Shown here one piece after another: positions 529-54,748 of a DNA stretch of 64,000 nt (its first letter is position 1; each line of letters starts with the position of its first letter). Location of the stretch: NCBI GenBank assembly GCA_000991575.1, contig LBRU01000001.1, positions 156,996-220,995 of the forward strand. The letters are read 5' to 3'. The notes below the pieces were generated by a model, which saw only the letters and a list, made by a program, of their open reading frames with translations, made no database searches and was not told the origin of the DNA. This stretch comes from a candidate division TM6 bacterium GW2011_GWE2_36_25. Lineage in GTDB: Bacteria; Babelota; Babeliae; Babelales; UBA12409. Both the position numbers and the translations under genes were made by a program.

Positions 529-2999
529 TAATGTTTTTTATTTTTCTTTTCTCTTCGTTCTGCGTTGTGAGCTTGTGGCCGTTGCTGATTTTTACCGACC
601 ATCATCTGCTCAAGCTCGCGCTTTCTTCTTTCAACGAGTTCATCTTGATTGAAATGCGCTGCATTCAGATGGAAGATGCGATAAACGATTTCCCATTTGA
701 TTTGCTGCATCATGTCTTTGAACATGAAAAAAGCTTCGCGTTTATATTCATAAAGAGGGTTTTTTTGAGCATAACCACGGTAGCCAATTCCTTCTTTTAA
801 ATGATCAATGTTAAGCATGTGTTGTTTCCATGCTTTATCCACTGTTTCAAGCGTGATCCATTTTTCGGCTGCACTGATTTGTCCTTGGTCAAATTTGGCG
901 CGGTAATACTCATAATTTTTTAAAAGAAAGTTAATGAGATCTTTTTTGAATGCATCACTATTTTCAGTGCTTAAGCCAGCGTCTTTAAAATCTTGCATGC
1001 GAATTGCGGTAATTTGGCTGACAAGGTGAAGCACTTTTTCTGATTGCTCATGAGTCAATTTTCTCGTCGGGCAATACTGGGCGATAGCATCTTGAATGAA
1101 GCCAATGATGAGATCAGTAATTAATCCGCGGGTATCATCGCTTTGTTCTAAAATTTGTCGACGGTAATCATAAATAACTTTACGATGCTGATTTATAACA
1201 TCGTCATACTCAAGAAGATGTTTGCGAATTTCAAAGTTGTGTTTTTCAACCTTTTCTTGTGCGCTTTCAATTTTTTTTGAAATAAATTTAGACTCAATCG
1301 TTTCATCTTCTTTCATGCCAAAGCGCTGCATTTTTTCCTTAATGCCGCCAAAAATTCTAATGAGATCATCATCAAGTGATAGATAAAAACGTGATTCTCC
1401 TGGATCCCCTTGGCGACCGGAGCGGCCACGCAATTGGTTGTCGATGCGTCGACTTTCGTGTCGTTCTGTTCCAAGAATGTACAAACCGCCCGCTTTTTTG
1501 GACTCAGGCGTTAACTTGATATCCGTGCCGCGTCCTGCCATATTTGTTGCAATTGTTACATGTCCCGGATGGCCTGCATATTTTATGATTTCAGCTTCTC
1601 GTTCATGATGTTTTGCATTTAACACCTCATGTGGAACACCATGCATTTTCAAAATTTTGCTTAAAAGCTCTGAAGTTTCAACGGCGATCGTGCCAATTAA
1701 AACTGGTTGTCCTTTTTTGTGTCGTTCTTGAATATCCTTAACGACTTCTTTGTATTTGCCTTCTTTGCCTAAGAAAATGAGGTCCGGTTTGTCATCGCGG
1801 ATCATAGCCATATTTGTTGGAATGGATACAACATCGAGTCCATAAATTTTATGAAATTCTTCGGCTTCGGTCATTGCTGTGCCGGTCATACCTGCAAGTT
1901 TTTTGTAAAGGCGGAAATAATTTTGCAAGGTAATTGAGGCAAGTGTTTGGCTTTCTTTTTCAACTTTTACACCTTCTTTTGCCTCTAATGCTTGATGTAA
2001 GCCATCACTATAGCGTCTTCCTGGGAGAACGCGTCCGGTGAATTCATCGACGATAAGAACCTGGCCGTCGCGAACCATATAATCAACATCGCGCTTGAAG
2101 AGTGCGTGCGCTTTCATTGCTTGTGTCACATGGTGCAAAATTTCTAAATTGGTTGGGTCGTAAAGATTTTTTATTTGGAAGAACGGTTCTATTTTATCGA
2201 CACCATTTTCAGTAAGCTGTACTGATCGTGCTTTTTCATCAACTTCAAAATCTTCGCCCTTTTTAAAATTTTTTACTGCTCGATCAGCTTTTTCGTAAAG
2301 TTCGCTTTCTTCGTCTGTTGGGCCTGAAATGATTAATGGTGTACGAGCTTCATCGATTAAGATCGAGTCAACCTCGTCAACGATTGCATAGTTTAAATCA
2401 CGTTGAACATAGTCTTCAAGTCTGAATTTCATGTTGTCGCGTAAATAATCGAAGCCGAACTCGTTATTAGTTCCATAAAGAATATCTGCAGCATAAACTT
2501 TTTTGCGCTCTTCATCTTCCATGTAATTTTGAAGGCATGCAACTTCGGTGCCAAGAAAATTATAGATAGGAGCATTCCATTCTGAGTCACGTTTTGCAAG
2601 GTAATCGTTAACCGTTACCAGGTGTGTACTTTTGCCTGTTAAGGAATTGAGATAGAGCGGCATTGTTGCGACAAGCGTTTTTCCTTCACCCGTTTTCATT
2701 TCAGCTATTTTTCCTTGGTGAAGGACAATTGCGCCCATTAATTGAACATCAAATGGACGCATGCCAAGTTTACGTTTTGAGGCTTCACGTACAACGGCAT
2801 ATGCTTCAGGCAAAAGATCATCTAAAGATTCGCCTTTTGCAAGACGTTCTTTGAATTCGAGTGTTTTTGCAGATAATTTTTCATCTGGTAAAGCTTGCAT
2901 TGAAGGTTCAAGTTCATTTATTTTTTTTACGATTGGCATCAAACGTTTGAGCTCACGTTCATTTGCGCTGCCGAATATTTTTCTTAAAAATGTAATCAT
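528..2999 (-). CDS. secA: Preprotein translocase ATPase SecA
   Basis: EMKTGEGKT Walker [50 protein letters not shown]. Confidence 0.99.
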
Positions 3000-3065
3000 A
3001 AATTTTCCTATAGCTCCCTTCTTGCCAGTTAATCAATATAACTAGGTCCCACACTACTACTCGCA

Positions 3066-3719
3066 TTAGTTTAACCAAATTATACTCATCTGGCGAGTAT
3101 AATCACCAGGCTTTTTTCTGTAAGAACAAAATCGATCATTACATATGGTGCATTCATTATATGATTTATCGATTTGTTTATGTGTTATTCCCAACTCTTT
3201 GAGAAGTAATTCGTTGCAAAGAGTGAGGTTAAAGCAATTATTTTTTAGAGCTGCCGTTGCCCATGCTGGCAGTTGATTTATAAAGGGCTCACTTATTTCA
3301 TAGCAGCACGATAAAGCACATGGACCAAAAAAGATGCGCAAATCTTGTGGTGTTGTTTTAAATATTTGGTTCATATGAGTGATTGTATTGAGAATAATTC
3401 TTTCAACGGTTCCACGCCATCCGGCATGAACAACACCGATAGAATCATTTTTTGTATCAACCAGAATGATTGGCAGGCAATCTGCGGTTAAAACACCAAT
3501 GCCAATTTGAGAAAGATTTGTAATTAGATAATCACTGTCATAAGTTAAACATGGTTGATATTGACCTAAGTTTTCCTTTGTTATCGCTAGTCCCATGTTT
3601 CCATGAACTTGATGTTGAAATATTACCGGAATATTGTCATGGCTAAAGAGTTTATTTTTTATATCAGTTGGATTTACGCAGTTTTTTTTATCATAAAATT
3701 TTATCGAAAATTTATTCAT
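3066..3719 (-). CDS. pgeF: Peptidoglycan editing factor PgeF / YfiH-like purine nucleoside phosphorylase (laccase domain)
   Basis: QHQVHG, DSDYLITN, VLTADCLPI, VVHAGWRG, GPCALSCCYE, CTIC, FCSYRK. Start placed at the MNKF ATG (3719); the ORF track extends to 3809. Confidence 0.9.
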   Translation of the reverse strand: MNKFSIKFYDKKNCVNPTDIKNKLFSHDNIPVIFQHQVHGNMGLAITKENLGQYQPCLTYDSDYLITNLSQIGIGVLTADCLPIILVDTKNDSIGVVHAGWRGTVERIILNTITHMNQIFKTTPQDLRIFFGPCALSCCYEISEPFINQLPAWATAALKNNCFNLTLCNELLLKELGITHKQIDKSYNECTICNDRFCSYRKKPGDYTRQMSIIWLN

Positions 3720-3840
3720 TAATCTTAACTTAATTAAGGTTATTATGCAGCCACCATGTCGCCTTAACATGGCGACCGTATTGAAATTTTTAACGTTATT
3801 ATAACGCACTTTTTAAAGAAATTAATTCTTTGATGATTTT

Positions 3841-5616
3841 TTAATCGATTATCGTAATTTCACCCTTAAGAAGTGCTTGATAATATTTTGATTTTTCTTT
3901 AAGAACGTCTGGGGGGTAAAATCTCATTTTTTTAGTTTCTTTGGTCAAAGAAATATCAAGAAGTCCTGATGCATCTTTGATAGTGTGTAATCGGTGTGCA
4001 ATAACAAATGTTGCAGCCTTGTTTGCAAGTTCACCAATCATATTGGTAATAGCTGTTTCGCTTACTTCATCAAGACTGCTTGTTGGTTCATCCATTAAAA
4101 TAAGAATTGACTCGTAATATTTGGCGCGCAGATAAACACTTGCGAAATTAAATCTTTGTCGTTGACCACCGGAAAGGGTAAAGCCTCCTTCGCCAATGAA
4201 TGTATCAAGACCTTCTTTATCGTTAAAAATTTTCCAAAGACCGACTTTTTTAAGAACTTCTTTCAATTCTTTGTCGGAATAAATTAACTTTTCGTGTGGC
4301 ATCCCGAATAAAAGGTTGTAGCGAACGCTTCCGCGCATGGTTGTAGCTGTTTGGTTTTGAATGGTAATCAGTGTTCGGCGGGCATAATCGTCAATTGCGT
4401 AGATATCAATGCCATTTAACATGACGGAGCCTTCTTGAGGTTTTAATTGACCACCCAGAATGGAGAGTAATGTTGTTTTTCCGACACCCGATGGGCCAAT
4501 GATGCCATAAAGTTTATTTTTTTGTGTGTAAGGGACAGTAAGAAGTAGTGAGTGGTCATTAAAAATTTGAGCATTAACATTGTATCTAAACTTGAGTTTT
4601 CGTGCTTCGATGGTGGTGCTGACTTTTTTATTGAGAGGCAATTCAAAGCGATGCTCACCAAGTACAGGAAAAGTCTGTTTGCCAAAGGATTGTAGAAAGG
4701 CAAATAGATCCTTAATGCGATCAATGTGGGTTACAAACCAATAGACGCGGCGCCCGACTTTGGTGATATCGTACGTGCCACGGAAGAATGTAATGATTAA
4801 ACCGATTGCACTGATAGTAGTTATTGATCCTTGCGTTGCATCTTTAAGCATGATAGCGCAGACGATGAAAAGGATAATGAGGTAAAGAATACGCATAATG
4901 GTGTTCATGAGGTAAAAAGAGCACCATGCCGCACGTTCAACAAAGATGCTTTTATTGGTAACTTGTCTCAGGCGTCGATTTGCTTCGTTGCCTGCAAAGG
5001 TTGAACGAATTAAGGTAATTTGTGCTAAATTTTCTATGCCGACATTTTTGACGCGGTCTTCTGCTTCTATTGTTTTTGCGATAAATGCTTGATTATTTAA
5101 AATATAGCTGTAAATACCAAAGGCGAGAAGAAGAATAACCAGACCAGTGGCGATTAAGCCTAAATTAATATTAGCTTGAATAACAGCAATCAAAGCCGTA
5201 ATGGTTCCGGCGAGCATAAACAAGAGATCGTGGATGCCGATTTCAATAATTTGCTGATACGAATCTTGTGCGCGGTCAATTTTTGCTATTATTTTGCCGG
5301 TTGCGCGCGTTGAGTGAAAAATTGGATCAATTTTAATAAGCAATTGGTTTGCATAGTATTGAATGCTTTGCATGCTTAAAAAAAGCTGAGCGAAGCTGAA
5401 GTCTGAAAAGTAATCAAAAATAAGTAAGACGCCCCATATTATTGTAAAATATAAAAGATAATCAAAGCGTAAGGTTTCGAAGATTTTACTCAAAAAAATA
5501 GGTGTTAGGGTGCCAAAAACGCGACGGATAAGTTGTGGAATAATAATTAAAAGAAGCCTTGTTTTTTGATTGGCGAGCAGTTTCCACCAGGGCTCATCAA
5601 AATTTATGGGGATCAA
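3841..5616 (-). CDS. ABC transporter, fused permease/ATP-binding (exporter type)
   Basis: N-terminal TM helices; GPSGVGKT, LSGGQRQR, ILMDEPTSSLD, IAHRL. The true start may be 28 codons upstream (see findings). Confidence 0.93.
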   Translation of the reverse strand: MIPINFDEPWWKLLANQKTRLLLIIIPQLIRRVFGTLTPIFLSKIFETLRFDYLLYFTIIWGVLLIFDYFSDFSFAQLFLSMQSIQYYANQLLIKIDPIFHSTRATGKIIAKIDRAQDSYQQIIEIGIHDLLFMLAGTITALIAVIQANINLGLIATGLVILLLAFGIYSYILNNQAFIAKTIEAEDRVKNVGIENLAQITLIRSTFAGNEANRRLRQVTNKSIFVERAAWCSFYLMNTIMRILYLIILFIVCAIMLKDATQGSITTISAIGLIITFFRGTYDITKVGRRVYWFVTHIDRIKDLFAFLQSFGKQTFPVLGEHRFELPLNKKVSTTIEARKLKFRYNVNAQIFNDHSLLLTVPYTQKNKLYGIIGPSGVGKTTLLSILGGQLKPQEGSVMLNGIDIYAIDDYARRTLITIQNQTATTMRGSVRYNLLFGMPHEKLIYSDKELKEVLKKVGLWKIFNDKEGLDTFIGEGGFTLSGGQRQRFNFASVYLRAKYYESILILMDEPTSSLDEVSETAITNMIGELANKAATFVIAHRLHTIKDASGLLDISLTKETKKMRFYPPDVLKEKSKYYQALLKGEITIID

Positions 5617-49407: not shown

Positions 49408-50457
49408 ATGAAAAATGTAGGTAAATTTATTGCGCTTTTTGCTTTCTTGATGTCAGTTTTTTTTCAGGCGATGTGGGCAATGGATAGAGAGGATGGTCGT
49501 CTTTCTTTTTTGTACTCAAGTGACCCGTTATATAACGAATTAATTAAAAAAATTAATGCTGATAATGTTCTCGGTGTTGAGGATGTGTTAACTACTAAAG
49601 TAAAACAATTAAAGGCTGAAGCGAAATGTTTTGGATTCAAGGATGTTGCATCTTATGTTTCTAAAGAATTAGCCCGGTTTGTTTGCCAACCAATTACTGG
49701 CCATGTTCATTATTTTGGTCACTTCCCTTTATCGCTTGCTGATAGTCAGGAAGTTGTTGAGTTGCTGTTAATAGCGGGGGCAGATATAAATCAACAACAC
49801 GTAAGAGATGGGGAAGTTGAAAATTCTTTATTGGATAGGGTTTGTGAATATTCTTATTTACAGAAAAAATTTAGAGATTATTTACCTTTTCTTCTTTCCC
49901 ATGGAGCAAGATTAGAGGAAAAAAATTATAGAGAGATAGTTTGTGCTGGAAGGTTCAAAGATATTTTCTTGCTTATACAAGAAGGGGTAGATTTAAGTGT
50001 CCGCATAGACGATCTGGGAAGGGATGTGAGTATGCTTGAGTATTCTAATTGCCTGTTACAAAATCCTTCTCGGCGTTGGACGCAAGATGAGCAATCATAT
50101 TACGCTCATAATTCTATACAATGGTGTGGCCGCATGTCTTTCAGGTCTGTTTTTCGCAACAAAGAGATTTTTGAAGAATTGAATCAAAGAGCATTTTTGC
50201 GGTCGCCAAAATTAGATGATCGTTTAGTTAATATTATGCTGCGTTATTCTGAATTAGCATTAAAGAACCCTGAAGGTTTAAGAGATTTGCGCTATGGTCC
50301 CGATGATGAATATGTGGTTGTCGAAGAAGAGATCGGCGCAATTAAAAAAGCGCATGAAGAAAATCATCAACGGTGGCTCGCTTTAGCAAAAAAAGAGTTA
50401 GGTATGCATGAATCTTTGATAACATCTCTGAGGGAGCGGGAATTAGGCAGTAGATAA
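49408..50457 (+). CDS. Secreted ankyrin-repeat-like protein
   Basis: Signal ending WA-MD; FPLSLA..QEVVELLLIAGADIN, FLLSHGA, LLIQEGVD. Confidence 0.8.
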   Translation: MKNVGKFIALFAFLMSVFFQAMWAMDREDGRLSFLYSSDPLYNELIKKINADNVLGVEDVLTTKVKQLKAEAKCFGFKDVASYVSKELARFVCQPITGHVHYFGHFPLSLADSQEVVELLLIAGADINQQHVRDGEVENSLLDRVCEYSYLQKKFRDYLPFLLSHGARLEEKNYREIVCAGRFKDIFLLIQEGVDLSVRIDDLGRDVSMLEYSNCLLQNPSRRWTQDEQSYYAHNSIQWCGRMSFRSVFRNKEIFEELNQRAFLRSPKLDDRLVNIMLRYSELALKNPEGLRDLRYGPDDEYVVVEEEIGAIKKAHEENHQRWLALAKKELGMHESLITSLRERELGSR

Positions 50458-50665: not shown

Positions 50666-51445
50666 TTATGTTTTGGTTGGTGCGATAAGACTCGCTTTAA
50701 GGGCATCTAAGAGCGGTTCATTTTTTTTGCGTTTCGGTTTAGTAGCTTCAATTTCTTTAACTTTTTTGCCTTTTTTACTCTGTTCAATTTTTTTCTTTAA
50801 TTGCTCAACAAAAGTGTCTTTGAATGTTCCCATATCAAATGCTTTTTTCGTTAATTTATTGATCAGCATGCGTGCTAATTTTAATTCGGCTGGGTGAATT
50901 TTAGGGATTTTTTTTAATCCAAGTTTTTCAATCGGTCTAATTTCATATGCATAGTTTAATGTTGTTAAAAGCAGTGCATTTTCATATGGTTCAATGAGAC
51001 AAGTATATTCTTTGTCGCGCATAACAAAACGTCCAATTGCAGCTTTAGCTTCTTTTTTGAGTGCTTCTAGAAAAAGAAAAAAAGATTTTTCATCTTTTTT
51101 TGCTGGTGCCATATAATAATGGTTATTGAGGTAGATTGGATTCACCTGTTGCATTGGAACGAATTCAACAATATCAATAGCGTCAGTTTTTTCAGGTTTT
51201 AATTTTTGCAGTTCTTCTTGATCAATAATAAAAGTTTTACCATTAGGCAGCTTGAGTCCCTTGACCGTTTCATTCCAAGGGATTTCCTTTTTACATTGAG
51301 GGCACCAACGTTCATAGTGAAGTTGGCTGTGACATTTTTTGCACAGAATATTAAAACCGAGTGTATGTTCCTTAATTGCAGCGTATAATTTAACGGGAAT
51401 GTTAACGAGTCCAAACGAGATGTCTCCTTGCCATATGGCTTGCAT
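50666..51445 (-). CDS. ku: Non-homologous end joining protein Ku
   Basis: WQGDISFGLVNIPVKLY, YLNNHYY, IGRFVMRDKEY, ELKLARMLI, LLDALKAS. Confidence 0.97.
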   Translation of the reverse strand: MQAIWQGDISFGLVNIPVKLYAAIKEHTLGFNILCKKCHSQLHYERWCPQCKKEIPWNETVKGLKLPNGKTFIIDQEELQKLKPEKTDAIDIVEFVPMQQVNPIYLNNHYYMAPAKKDEKSFFLFLEALKKEAKAAIGRFVMRDKEYTCLIEPYENALLLTTLNYAYEIRPIEKLGLKKIPKIHPAELKLARMLINKLTKKAFDMGTFKDTFVEQLKKKIEQSKKGKKVKEIEATKPKRKKNEPLLDALKASLIAPTKT

Positions 51446-52520: not shown

Positions 52521-53291
52521 ATGGTGAAAAAGGAGCAGGGATTGGTTGGGCGATGGCAAATAATTATCTTATTGGGGCTCTTCAATTTACTTGCCATGGA
52601 TAAATTTACAAAGCATGGTCATTCAAAGAGTGAGCCTGCAGGGGAATATGGTGCGCTTATTGAAATGGAGCCAATCTTGTCTGCCAAAAAACATGAACCA
52701 TTTATGCCTGTTGTCCCAGAAATTGATTTAGAGAAAGGGGAATCTAGTAACTCGTCTGAAGTGGTTCCATTAAATGAAAATAAAGAGCTTGCGCAAAAAG
52801 TTGAACAAATAATAGGGGATTTACATACTTTAAAGGATCAGTTAGAGCCGGAACCTATTTTTGTTCCGGTGACATTAAAAGAAAAGATTAAATATTATTG
52901 TTATCGAACTAAACAATGGGTTTGTGAACATAAAGGGAGAGTAACGTTAGTTATTGTTGGTGGCGTCTTATGTGTCTATTTTGGTTATTACATTGGCGTT
53001 AGAGGAATTCAAAAGATGACCGACACTTGTGATAGAGCACGAGACAAGGCCGAAGATGTTATTGATTTAGTTGATCAAGCACTTCCGTTTTGTAAGCACA
53101 CTTTGGCACAATGTAAAGAGAGCGGTGCACAGTGTGATCGCGCGAATGTAATGTTTGCAACACTTTTGACGATGCTTAAAAATGGAACATGTGAATTAGC
53201 TAGAGGATTTACGCAAGAAGCAATAGTCGCCTTTGGCGAAATGTTAGATGTTTGTCGTCGAGCTACTGATTTTGGTTACCATCCCCAATAA
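52521..53291 (+). CDS. Hypothetical membrane protein (signal, acidic linker, coiled coil, TM helix, Cys-containing coiled coil)
   Basis: IIILLGLFNLLA-MD N-terminus; VTLVIVGGVLCVYFGYYIGV TM segment. Confidence 0.7.
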   Translation: MVKKEQGLVGRWQIIILLGLFNLLAMDKFTKHGHSKSEPAGEYGALIEMEPILSAKKHEPFMPVVPEIDLEKGESSNSSEVVPLNENKELAQKVEQIIGDLHTLKDQLEPEPIFVPVTLKEKIKYYCYRTKQWVCEHKGRVTLVIVGGVLCVYFGYYIGVRGIQKMTDTCDRARDKAEDVIDLVDQALPFCKHTLAQCKESGAQCDRANVMFATLLTMLKNGTCELARGFTQEAIVAFGEMLDVCRRATDFGYHPQ

Positions 53292-53294
53292 AAA

Positions 53295-53951
53295 TTATTT
53301 TTCTGGATTGACGAGCTCATAAAAATAAACAGGACAGTTCGTGCTCCATGTCATTGGTAGATGAGCGGTCTCTTTTAATTCAAAACAATTTTTTGCATTG
53401 GGCAAATTGCGCAGTGATGCAATTTTAAGTCCTTTTTGAAGCTTGGAAAATTTGTCTGACAGTTTTTGCATGAGGTCATCAGAAAAACATAATGAGGCAA
53501 TATAAACCGCAGTGGCATCATCGATATTTGTTTTGAGAAGGTCGTTTTCTTCAAAGATAAGTTCTCGATTTTTTTTAATTTTCTTTTTTTCTTTTAATTG
53601 TTTTTTTGCTTTATGTGCTGTTTCGAGACGAGATTTTGACAATTCGATGCCCACGCTTTTTTTGACTGGTGTTGTTAAATATACTTGTACAACCATTTTT
53701 CCGATGCCGCATCCTAAATCATAAAAACAATCTTTTTTATTTAACTTGAAGCGTTTTAAAATTTCATGTACACCATCATAGGTTATTTCACCATAGGTCG
53801 GCTCTCCACCAGCATTACGAATAAGCTGATCTTCTTCGAGTGGAATGATAAAACCTGAATTTTCTTTATAAAGATTTTCGATAAGAGCCTCATTGCTGAT
53901 GGCCTGTAGAGAGAATAATAAAAAAAATGGTAAAAATAATTTGCAAATCAT
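53295..53951 (-). CDS. DOT1-like class I SAM-dependent methyltransferase with signal peptide
   Basis: TYGEI, FYDLGCGIGK, VGIELS, F.E.DL, VYIASLCF, GLKIAS. Confidence 0.8.
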   Translation of the reverse strand: MICKLFLPFFLLFSLQAISNEALIENLYKENSGFIIPLEEDQLIRNAGGEPTYGEITYDGVHEILKRFKLNKKDCFYDLGCGIGKMVVQVYLTTPVKKSVGIELSKSRLETAHKAKKQLKEKKKIKKNRELIFEENDLLKTNIDDATAVYIASLCFSDDLMQKLSDKFSKLQKGLKIASLRNLPNAKNCFELKETAHLPMTWSTNCPVYFYELVNPEK

Positions 53952-54055
53952 TTTAATCCTTTTTTGTGTACGCTGCTATTGACGCAGTCTTTGAGCATGT
54001 TAAACTGACTCATAAGCAAATTTAAGTTTTTTTGATAAAAAAATAAAGGATTAGA

Positions 54056-54748
54056 ATGTTATCAATAAAACAACAGTTATTTCTTTGTCTCGTATTTGTT
54101 TCAGCAACACGTGCGGCGCAATCAAATATAAGTTCGGTTGCCGATAAAGGGCAAAATATTTCTGCTTCAGCAGAAAAAACGGTAAAAGCACCTGAGGTTA
54201 AAGCTCCAAATATTTTAATTATTCTGGTTGATATTCAAGATATTATCAATAAAACGCAAGTTGATAAAGAATTTGTCGAGGATTTAATCAACAAACAACA
54301 AGAATTCCAAAAAGAATTGAAAGCCAAGGGCGAAGAGATTCAAAAGAAAGAGCAAAACCTCAAAGCAAAAGCTTCTGCACTTTCAGCAGATGCGCTCAAA
54401 AAATTATATGAGGAGCTTGATGATATTCGTGTACAAGCAAATCGCCTTGCTGAACGTCGCCAAAAAGAGTTGCAACAAGAAGAGATGAATACTCGTTTCA
54501 AAGTCTTTAAAACAATTCAAGATTATGCCCAAGAGTTGTTAAAAAACAAACCTGGTGTCAAAGTTATTCTTGAAAAAAATAGTGTTCTCGCGTTTGATCA
54601 TTCCATTGATATGACAGATGAATTAACAAAAGTTATTAAAGATGATCTTGCCAAAAAAGAAGCAGCAAAGAAAAAGGTGGCTGCTGCAAAAAAAGAGACA
54701 GAGTCAGCCCCTAAAACATCCAAATTAGCCGCTTCCGCAGCTGCTTAA
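54056..54748 (+). CDS. skp: OmpH/Skp periplasmic chaperone
   Basis: Signal peptide; ILVDIQDII, long coiled coil, VILEKNSVL.F....DMTDEL. Confidence 0.85.
   Translation: MLSIKQQLFLCLVFVSATRAAQSNISSVADKGQNISASAEKTVKAPEVKAPNILIILVDIQDIINKTQVDKEFVEDLINKQQEFQKELKAKGEEIQKKEQNLKAKASALSADALKKLYEELDDIRVQANRLAERRQKELQQEEMNTRFKVFKTIQDYAQELLKNKPGVKVILEKNSVLAFDHSIDMTDELTKVIKDDLAKKEAAKKKVAAAKKETESAPKTSKLAASAAA

Follow-up and report, generated by a model that had tools for sequence, protein, structure and literature searches.

A catalytic-domain-only DOT1-family methyltransferase with a Sec-type signal in a Dependentiae genome: a candidate host-directed enzyme

The analysed window (64,000 nucleotides; contig LBRU01000001.1 of assembly GCA_000991575.1, positions 156,996 to 220,995) belongs to a Dependentiae genome of 1.07 Mb (17 contigs, 94.6% complete, GC about 0.36). 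All coordinates are given as window positions. Positions 53295..53951 of the minus strand encode a 218-aa, catalytic-domain-only SAM-dependent methyltransferase of the DOT1 family, as recognised from the open reading frame (ORF), the Pfam profile PF08123, an AlphaFold2 model and Foldseek comparisons. The preliminary description had quoted motif strings without giving a strand; all of them were found in the translation of this minus-strand ORF. The start codon is well supported, because a Shine-Dalgarno-like AAGGA (53957..53961, minus strand, from reading of the sequence) lies 5 nt 5' of the ATG. Within the first 90 codons, in-frame ATG, GTG or TTG triplets occur at codon 1 and codon 86 only. 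A signal-free cytoplasmic form made from an alternative start was ruled out, since the next in-frame start is codon 86, and any product with the essential YGE loop (see below) thus carries the hydrophobic N-terminus.

An OmpH/Skp gene (54056-54748, plus strand, OmpH Pfam match) and the DOT1 gene are oriented divergently, with an intergenic region of 104 bp between them (53952..54055, delimited by the two ORFs). On its other side the DOT1 gene is convergent with the gene at 52521-53291, whose stop codon is 3 nt away. Two exported RING-type proteins are encoded 2 kb downstream of the DOT1 gene. Promoter and terminator scans at the DOT1 gene gave consensus-level matches only, near the shuffled expectation. 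The gene is single-copy: a PF08123 profile search (84.4 bits) found no paralogs in its own genome. The divergent OmpH/Skp arrangement is kept in the three nearest relatives. The Ku, MazG-like, cyclase, 52521-53291 and OmpH genes are common only to the 1-3 closest relatives, and the TauE and RING genes near the DOT1 gene are common to no relative. A conserved operon partner that could name the substrate was sought among these neighbours and none was found, as they are not kept beyond the nearest relatives.

The preliminary description had proposed a DOT1-like methyltransferase, and sequence and structure matches agree on this assignment. PF08123 matches the 218-aa protein with E=7e-24 (85 bits, cutoff 23) over profile positions 17-165 of 205; the second-best Pfam family reaches 23.5 bits, under its own cutoff, and the other methyltransferase families likewise stay below theirs. 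The best 20 matches of a PDB sequence search are DOT1 enzymes, entry 9ne1 being the first. The AlphaFold2 model was built on 65 relatives (mean pLDDT 93.7, pTM 0.89), and its best ~46 Foldseek matches in the PDB are DOT1 only (yeast, human, trypanosome and one bacterium). No clustering with non-DOT1 methyltransferases was seen by sequence, by profile or by Foldseek. The archaeal aKMT/aKMT4 enzymes (Sulfolobus; 5fa8, 5fad, 5jwj) have the same DOT1-like minimal lysine methyltransferase core as the 218-aa protein, and the match to them (Foldseek E=7.7e-11, TMt 0.79; profile E=2.9e-15) is much weaker than that to DOT1 proper. They are cytoplasmic, have no signal and lack the N-terminal LY..GF and YGE segments (the alignment begins at profile position 67). 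Identity as an archaeal aKMT equivalog was ruled out, the NCBIfam archaeal lysine-methyltransferase model scoring 39 bits against a cutoff of 200.

The motifs of the catalytic domain were located on the minus strand as follows: TYGE (residues 52-55, 53787..53798), aligned to DOT1L Y136-G137-E138, is the DOT1 'D1' loop over the SAM pocket; FYDLGCGIG (residues 76-84, 53700..53726), aligned to DOT1L DLGSGVG, is the SAM-binding motif I (DxGxGxG); and GIE (residues 101-103, 53643..53651), aligned to DOT1L G-V-E186, provides the post-I acidic residue for SAM ribose binding. Y53/G54/E55, D78/G80/G82/G84 and G101/E103 are invariant among the 65 aligned family members, and this invariance of the SAM-binding residues argues for an enzyme under selection that is probably active. 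By alignment, VYIASLCF (residues 149-156, 53484..53507) is the counterpart of DOT1L VFVNNFAF: the VNNFAF of DOT1L is replaced by the consensus (C/A)S(T/L)CF in the short family, where S153 (in 59/65 members) stands in the place of N241 and C155 is found in 63/65. The conserved C-terminal hairpin LPMTWSTNCPVYFY (residues 198-211, 53319..53360) holds the invariant columns W202 and Y211, which we take, from the motif and not from a tool alignment, to correspond to DOT1L W305 and Y312.

The best sequence match of the 218-aa protein (E=1.9e-12) and its best mutual Foldseek match (TMq 0.76 / TMt 0.81, ~24% identity) are one and the same protein, LpDot1 of Legionella pneumophila (lpp3025; PDB 9ne1); the family profile gives it 126 bits and human DOT1L 83. 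The PDB entry is titled 'a bacterial DOT1L methyl-transferase', and its chain was equated with LpDot1 because it contains RDAIEYVYGE and INSSTL, the gate loops named in a 2026 preprint (bioRxiv 10.64898/2026.01.11.698932). LpDot1 thereby confirms the earlier remark that DOT1-like domains occur among Legionella effectors (bioRxiv 10.64898/2026.01.11.698932). According to the same preprint, activity of LpDot1 on histones could not be detected, and the enzyme methylates nuclear proteins other than histones, with SFPQ K518 as the substrate site. It also lacks three nucleosome elements of DOT1L, namely F131 (Ala instead), the 273-286 loop and the helix 319-331, and F131A abolishes H3 methylation by DOT1L (bioRxiv 10.64898/2026.01.11.698932).

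LpDot1 and the 218-aa protein share much: both consist of the catalytic domain only (about 200 aa), and both have an N-terminal 'LYxxxxGFxI', a Lys after motif I (GxGxGK), a Ser at the DOT1L N241 position (INSSTL in LpDot1) and a small residue at the F131 position. Both are without the 273-286 loop and the C-terminal helix, and LpDot1 aligns to the C-terminal hairpin of the 218-aa protein through its '...qMsWg'. The Ser at the N241 position does not imply inactivity, since the active LpDot1 has it too. The two proteins differ in their address and in their surface. LpDot1 has no Sec signal and is described as an effector, its bacterium having a Dot/Icm type IV secretion system (T4SS), whereas the 218-aa protein carries such a signal and its genome lacks VirB4. 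The surface of LpDot1 is described as near neutral (bioRxiv 10.64898/2026.01.11.698932); the 218-aa protein, with a pI of 8.7 and its +9 loop, is basic.

The eukaryotic DOT1L/Dot1p enzymes (PDB 1nw3, 1u2z, 6nj9) share with the 218-aa protein the Pfam family, the Rossmann-type DOT1 fold, the YGE D1 loop, motif I and the post-I acidic residue, at ~18-21% identity. Their N-terminal domain is missing from it, and the target-normalised TM-scores are 0.39-0.50 (TMt ~0.49 to DOT1L) against 0.81 to 9ne1. In the profile alignment, DOT1L F131 aligns to G48 (53808..53810, minus strand), a position that is Gly in 62/65 family members, and the alignment to DOT1L stops at residue 274, at the start of the loop 273-286 that contacts the nucleosome (H2A/H2B, acidic patch). 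The model has no counterpart of this loop: ~10 residues (180-189) join strands 176-179 and 190-198. The chain ends at residue 218, 7 residues past Y211 of the last strand, and the model is without a C-terminal helix. Neither the DOT1L helix 319-331 (ubiquitin and nucleosome binding) nor the later basic DNA-binding region has a counterpart. An enzyme of this size may still act on histones: the small trypanosome DOT1A/B are histone H3 methyltransferases (H3K76, from PDB entry descriptions among the Foldseek matches). As judged from alignment and model, the 218-aa enzyme appears to be without a recognisable H3K79 or nucleosome apparatus, and histones are disfavoured as its target. The 'H3K79-type' label of the preliminary description was not upheld, given that the nearest characterised relative is inactive on histones and that the 218-aa protein shares its losses.

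The strongly basic patch KAKKQLKEKKKIKKNR (residues 114-129, 53565..53612, minus strand), which aligns with a basic stretch of DOT1L itself (residues ~196-212), had been described as NLS-like. Its basic character is real; the NLS reading is weak, with the patch in an ordered core and its charge varying across the family. The AlphaFold2 model places it at the end of helix 106-121 and in the loop that leads to beta3, a strand of the Rossmann core, with pLDDT 97-98, and therefore not in a flexible tail. The net charge of +9 is the highest of the 65 aligned proteins (median +4, minimum -1), and close relatives are generally basic at this place. Across the genome, 17-residue windows with a net charge of at least +9 were found in 10/946 ORFs, and the bare K[KR]x[KR] pattern was found in 357/946 ORFs (38%). 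In the longer relatives, the extra length consists of Lys-rich inserts at the basic loop, often together with acidic C-terminal tails, or of a second DOT1 domain (L056/L057); no extra targeting domains were found in them with Pfam. On the model and the alignment, the patch would be a variable, usually basic surface loop, for which the name of classical NLS is hardly fitting, and which may help to bind an acidic or nucleic-acid-associated partner. A mature protein of 23 kDa is small enough to enter the nucleus without an NLS.

A cleavable-looking signal had also been proposed, and a Sec-type N-terminal signal, conserved in relatives, is indeed present; the cleavage itself is predicted. The signal MICKLFLPFFLLFSLQA (residues 1-17, 53901..53951, minus strand) is composed of an n-region MICK, an h-region of 11-13 residues, which is too short for a membrane span, and a c-region LQA followed by acidic residues, and it would be cut after A17. 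With a crude hydropathy test, an equivalent N-terminal hydrophobic segment was found in about 105/120 relatives. In a minority, the N-terminus has a lipobox-like Cys (such as ...LPQC) or is a long, anchor-like stretch, which would suit a protein kept in the envelope more than one that is freely secreted. Of 80 loci from named genomes, those of Dependentiae, Finniella and other Alphaproteobacteria, reduced Bacteroidota and Oligoflexia have the segment, and those of Legionellaceae/Francisellaceae, the main Myxococcota clade and Patescibacteria lack it. On the DOT1 tree, 9 changes of the signal label suffice where shuffled labels take 24.5, so that the signal tracks lineage, on a topology with 31/71 inner branches open. 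In this tree the Legionella lineage is represented by Legionellaceae MAG loci, with the LpDot1 sequence left out, and human DOT1L by a sole fragment on a very long branch; with the backbone open, the tree permits no conclusion on the direction of transfer or on the point where eukaryotic DOT1 joins.

The signal is no special mark of the DOT1 gene. The same crude test detected a hydrophobic N-terminus in 52% of the 946 ORFs, and 42% have one and no later membrane segment, so that signal-like N-termini (~42-52% of ORFs) are a habit of the lineage with little discriminating power. In the cultured Dependentiae species C. destructans, signal peptides are found on 44% of CDS, eukaryote-like effectors with signals are described as typical of Dependentiae, and Sec together with vesicles was proposed as the route of effector delivery (PMC6561590). 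The genome analysed here encodes 3 secretins, 2 GspE/PilB-family ATPases, 3 signal peptidases I and MetK. A family profile search of the ~95%-complete genome returned no match for a VirB4-type T4SS ATPase. The DOT1 module is thus found without a Sec signal in Legionellales and with one in lineages such as this VirB4-less Dependentiae genome. A Sec signal guarantees the periplasm only, and we infer the crossing of the outer membrane and of any vacuole membrane.

The named close relatives of the 218-aa protein belong to Candidatus Babeliales/Dependentiae, a phylum of obligate intracellular parasites of protists (PMC6561590). The DOT1 gene is present in 34/151 sampled genomes of the phylum (23%) and in 25/96 sampled genera, mostly as a single copy and occasionally as tandem pairs. 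Its relatives at large are found above all in bacteria associated with protists and in giant viruses, as a 2022 review reports too; the review places 'Candidatus Dependentiae' sequences in a DOT1 clade with Legionella, protists and giant viruses, and argues for repeated horizontal transfer (PMC10117894). The best viral structural match is the short DOT1 of Hyperionvirus (A0A3G5AC17, 218 aa; TM 0.74/0.74, 24% identity), which has the same size and fold as the bacterial protein and comes from one protist-associated gene pool with it (PMC10117894). The viral DOT1 is synthesised within the host and can do without a bacterial export signal. Signal-free relatives occur in Myxococcota and Patescibacteria, which are not known protist endosymbionts, so that use against eukaryotes is not the sole role of the family.

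The reading that we consider more probable than the others, with odds somewhat better than even, is that the protein is a Sec-exported, host-directed protein-lysine methyltransferase, probably with a non-histone target, that is released by a secretin pathway or in vesicles. The proposal of the preliminary description that an exported enzyme acts on a host protein is retained, with similar leaning, as the best available reading. In this scheme, the precursor would cross the inner membrane by Sec and would be cut after A17 to give a basic enzyme of 23 kDa; the mature enzyme would leave the cell via a secretin-type pathway or outer-membrane vesicles and would use host SAM to methylate lysines on proteins of the protist host. 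Nucleosomal H3K79 is a less likely target than a non-histone protein, because of the LpDot1 analogy and the missing nucleosome-binding elements of DOT1L, and the Lys-rich loop suggests that the target may be nuclear or nucleic-acid-associated. The patchy occurrence, the unconserved neighbours, the nearby exported RING-type proteins and the protist-linked relatives were counted toward an accessory, host-facing character.

Three other explanations were weighed against this one. A secreted nucleomodulin that enters the nucleus via its basic patch and methylates H3K79, or the protist equivalent, on nucleosomes would suit a true DOT1-family member that is basic (mature pI 8.7) and whose +9 patch is rare in the proteome (10/946 ORFs), and the Lys-rich inserts of longer relatives at the same loop suggest a functional basic surface. 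Histone activity is also on record for small or bacterial enzymes: trypanosome DOT1A/B are histone H3K76 methyltransferases, and M. tuberculosis Rv2067c is reported to methylate H3K79. This explanation is nevertheless doubtful, and we give it a low probability: Gly stands in the place of F131, a residue that DOT1L cannot exchange for Ala without losing H3 methylation; the elements that contact H2A/H2B and ubiquitin (loop 273-286 and helix 319-331) are missing, as is the DOT1L/Dot1p N-terminal domain (TM-scores to these targets of 0.39-0.50); LpDot1, the nearest characterised relative, is inactive on histones; and the patch lies within the ordered core, with a charge that varies across the family.

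The two remaining explanations keep the enzyme in or on the bacterium. It could reside in the periplasm or on the surface and methylate the exported or outer-membrane proteins of the bacterium itself, with SAM diffusing in from the host cytoplasm; this might protect its surface lysines against ubiquitylation by the host, an effect that PKMT1/2 have on OmpB in Rickettsia. The Sec signal, which by itself leads to the periplasm only, agrees with such an enzyme, as do the lipobox-like or long anchor N-termini of several relatives and the divergent gene for the periplasmic chaperone OmpH/Skp, kept in the three nearest relatives. There is also a functional analogy in PKMT1/PKMT2, seven-beta-strand lysine methyltransferases of an obligate intracellular bacterium, where lysine methylation of outer-membrane proteins protects Rickettsia from ubiquitin (PMC8232902). 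PKMT2 gives a weak, marginal sequence match (5doo, E=0.013), but PKMT1/PKMT2 are not of the DOT1 family, measure 535 aa and have no reported signal peptide, and the study gives no evidence of periplasmic PKMTs, the word 'periplasm' occurring 0 times in its text (PMC8232902). Moreover, only the closest relatives keep the OmpH linkage, a distribution over 23% of genomes is odd for envelope maintenance, and the signal-free Legionella orthologs are injected effectors that act in the host nucleus. An envelope enzyme is therefore unlikely in our estimation, and a strict version, in which the enzyme never reaches the host and, at the surface or in the periplasm, methylates proteins that the bacterium itself exports, for instance to hide them from host ubiquitin ligases, is a little more unlikely still. 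We know of no periplasmic SAM-dependent methyltransferase. If true, the periplasmic reading would, to our knowledge, describe the first periplasmic SAM-dependent protein methyltransferase, and it would make sense of the lipobox relatives and of the nearby OmpH/Skp gene. Alternatively, the N-terminus could be an uncleaved membrane tether that holds the catalytic domain in the bacterial cytoplasm, where it would methylate bacterial proteins in the manner of archaeal aKMT4, an enzyme that methylates chromatin and other proteins. Cytoplasmic SAM would be to hand, as MetK is present; archaeal aKMT (5fa8/5fad) is a structural and sequence relative, some distant relatives have anchor-like segments of 19-25 residues, and the signal-free Myxococcota and Patescibacteria copies are presumably cytoplasmic. 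Yet the h-region of 11-13 residues is too short to span the membrane, the small-residue site LQA with acidic residues behind it has the geometry of a signal peptide (N-in/C-out), and the archaeal lysine-methyltransferase model stays far below its cutoff (39 bits against 200), so that a tether is the least probable of these explanations and very unlikely.

A tree that includes DOT1 homologs from Dependentiae has already been published (PMC10117894), and eukaryote-like effectors with signals are a typical feature of this phylum (PMC6561590). The form with a Sec signal, paired by lineage with the export machinery at hand, is of use for comparison and makes no new category. For a long time DOT1 was regarded as a chromatin writer of eukaryotes that has one substrate only, and the LpDot1 preprint describes a short DOT1 turned on non-histone nuclear proteins; a minimal DOT1 is widespread in Dependentiae, a phylum without T4SS, and there it bears a Sec signal. 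The catalytic part has the look of a module that can pass from one protist parasite to another, with the export address supplied by each lineage. It offers a comparative system for two questions: which substrates short DOT1 enzymes have in protists, and how Dependentiae deliver Sec-exported proteins to their hosts.

Around the gene for the short DOT1-family methyltransferase (window 53295-53951, minus strand; 218 aa), a neighbouring gene encodes a 256-aa protein without a Pfam match (52521-53291, plus strand). The two genes are convergent, with 3 nt between their stop codons, and when the fetched loci around DOT1 genes of relatives were compared, conservation of the 256-aa protein was limited to the nearest relative locus (L018). 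Relatives of a 349-aa protein (49408-50457, plus strand), which carries a signal-like N-terminus and lacks a Pfam match, were found in none of the fetched DOT1 loci. Between these genes lies a Ku protein gene (50666-51445, minus strand; PF02735, 148 bits), encoded in a reduced genome of 1.07 Mb; the Ku protein contains an insert of the pattern CxxC...CxxC, which matches zinc ribbons weakly.

The same genome bears three signal peptidase I paralogs (L099-L101; C5:34191-35964 and C3:50925-51650), two of them arranged in tandem, and signal-like N-termini were present on approximately half of its ORFs. Three secretins and two GspE/PilB ATPases were also found; a search of this genome for VirB4 returned none.

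Among the relatives, the 454-aa proteins of two Myxococcota MAG loci (L056 and L057; matches near 2919-3512 and 3764-4288) carry an N-terminal hydrophobic anchor and a tandem repeat of the DOT1 domain, both copies being complete. Some Dependentiae genomes have DOT1 genes arranged as tandem pairs (G002:C13:258789-259922; the Babeliales MAG proteins P0020/P0025). A 375-aa relative without a signal, from the uncultured bacterium MFD02138.bin.3.60 (L060, match 4001-4615), has long, Lys-rich and probably disordered tails at both termini.

In five longer relatives (P0114, P0106, P0083, P0096 and P0060), which also have acidic C-terminal tails, Lys-rich inserts are located exactly at the helix-to-beta3 loop. 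At this site, part of the basic patch (residues 114-129), the window protein has KEKKKIKKNR. Judged from these sequences, the helix-to-beta3 loop appears to be a hot spot of evolution.
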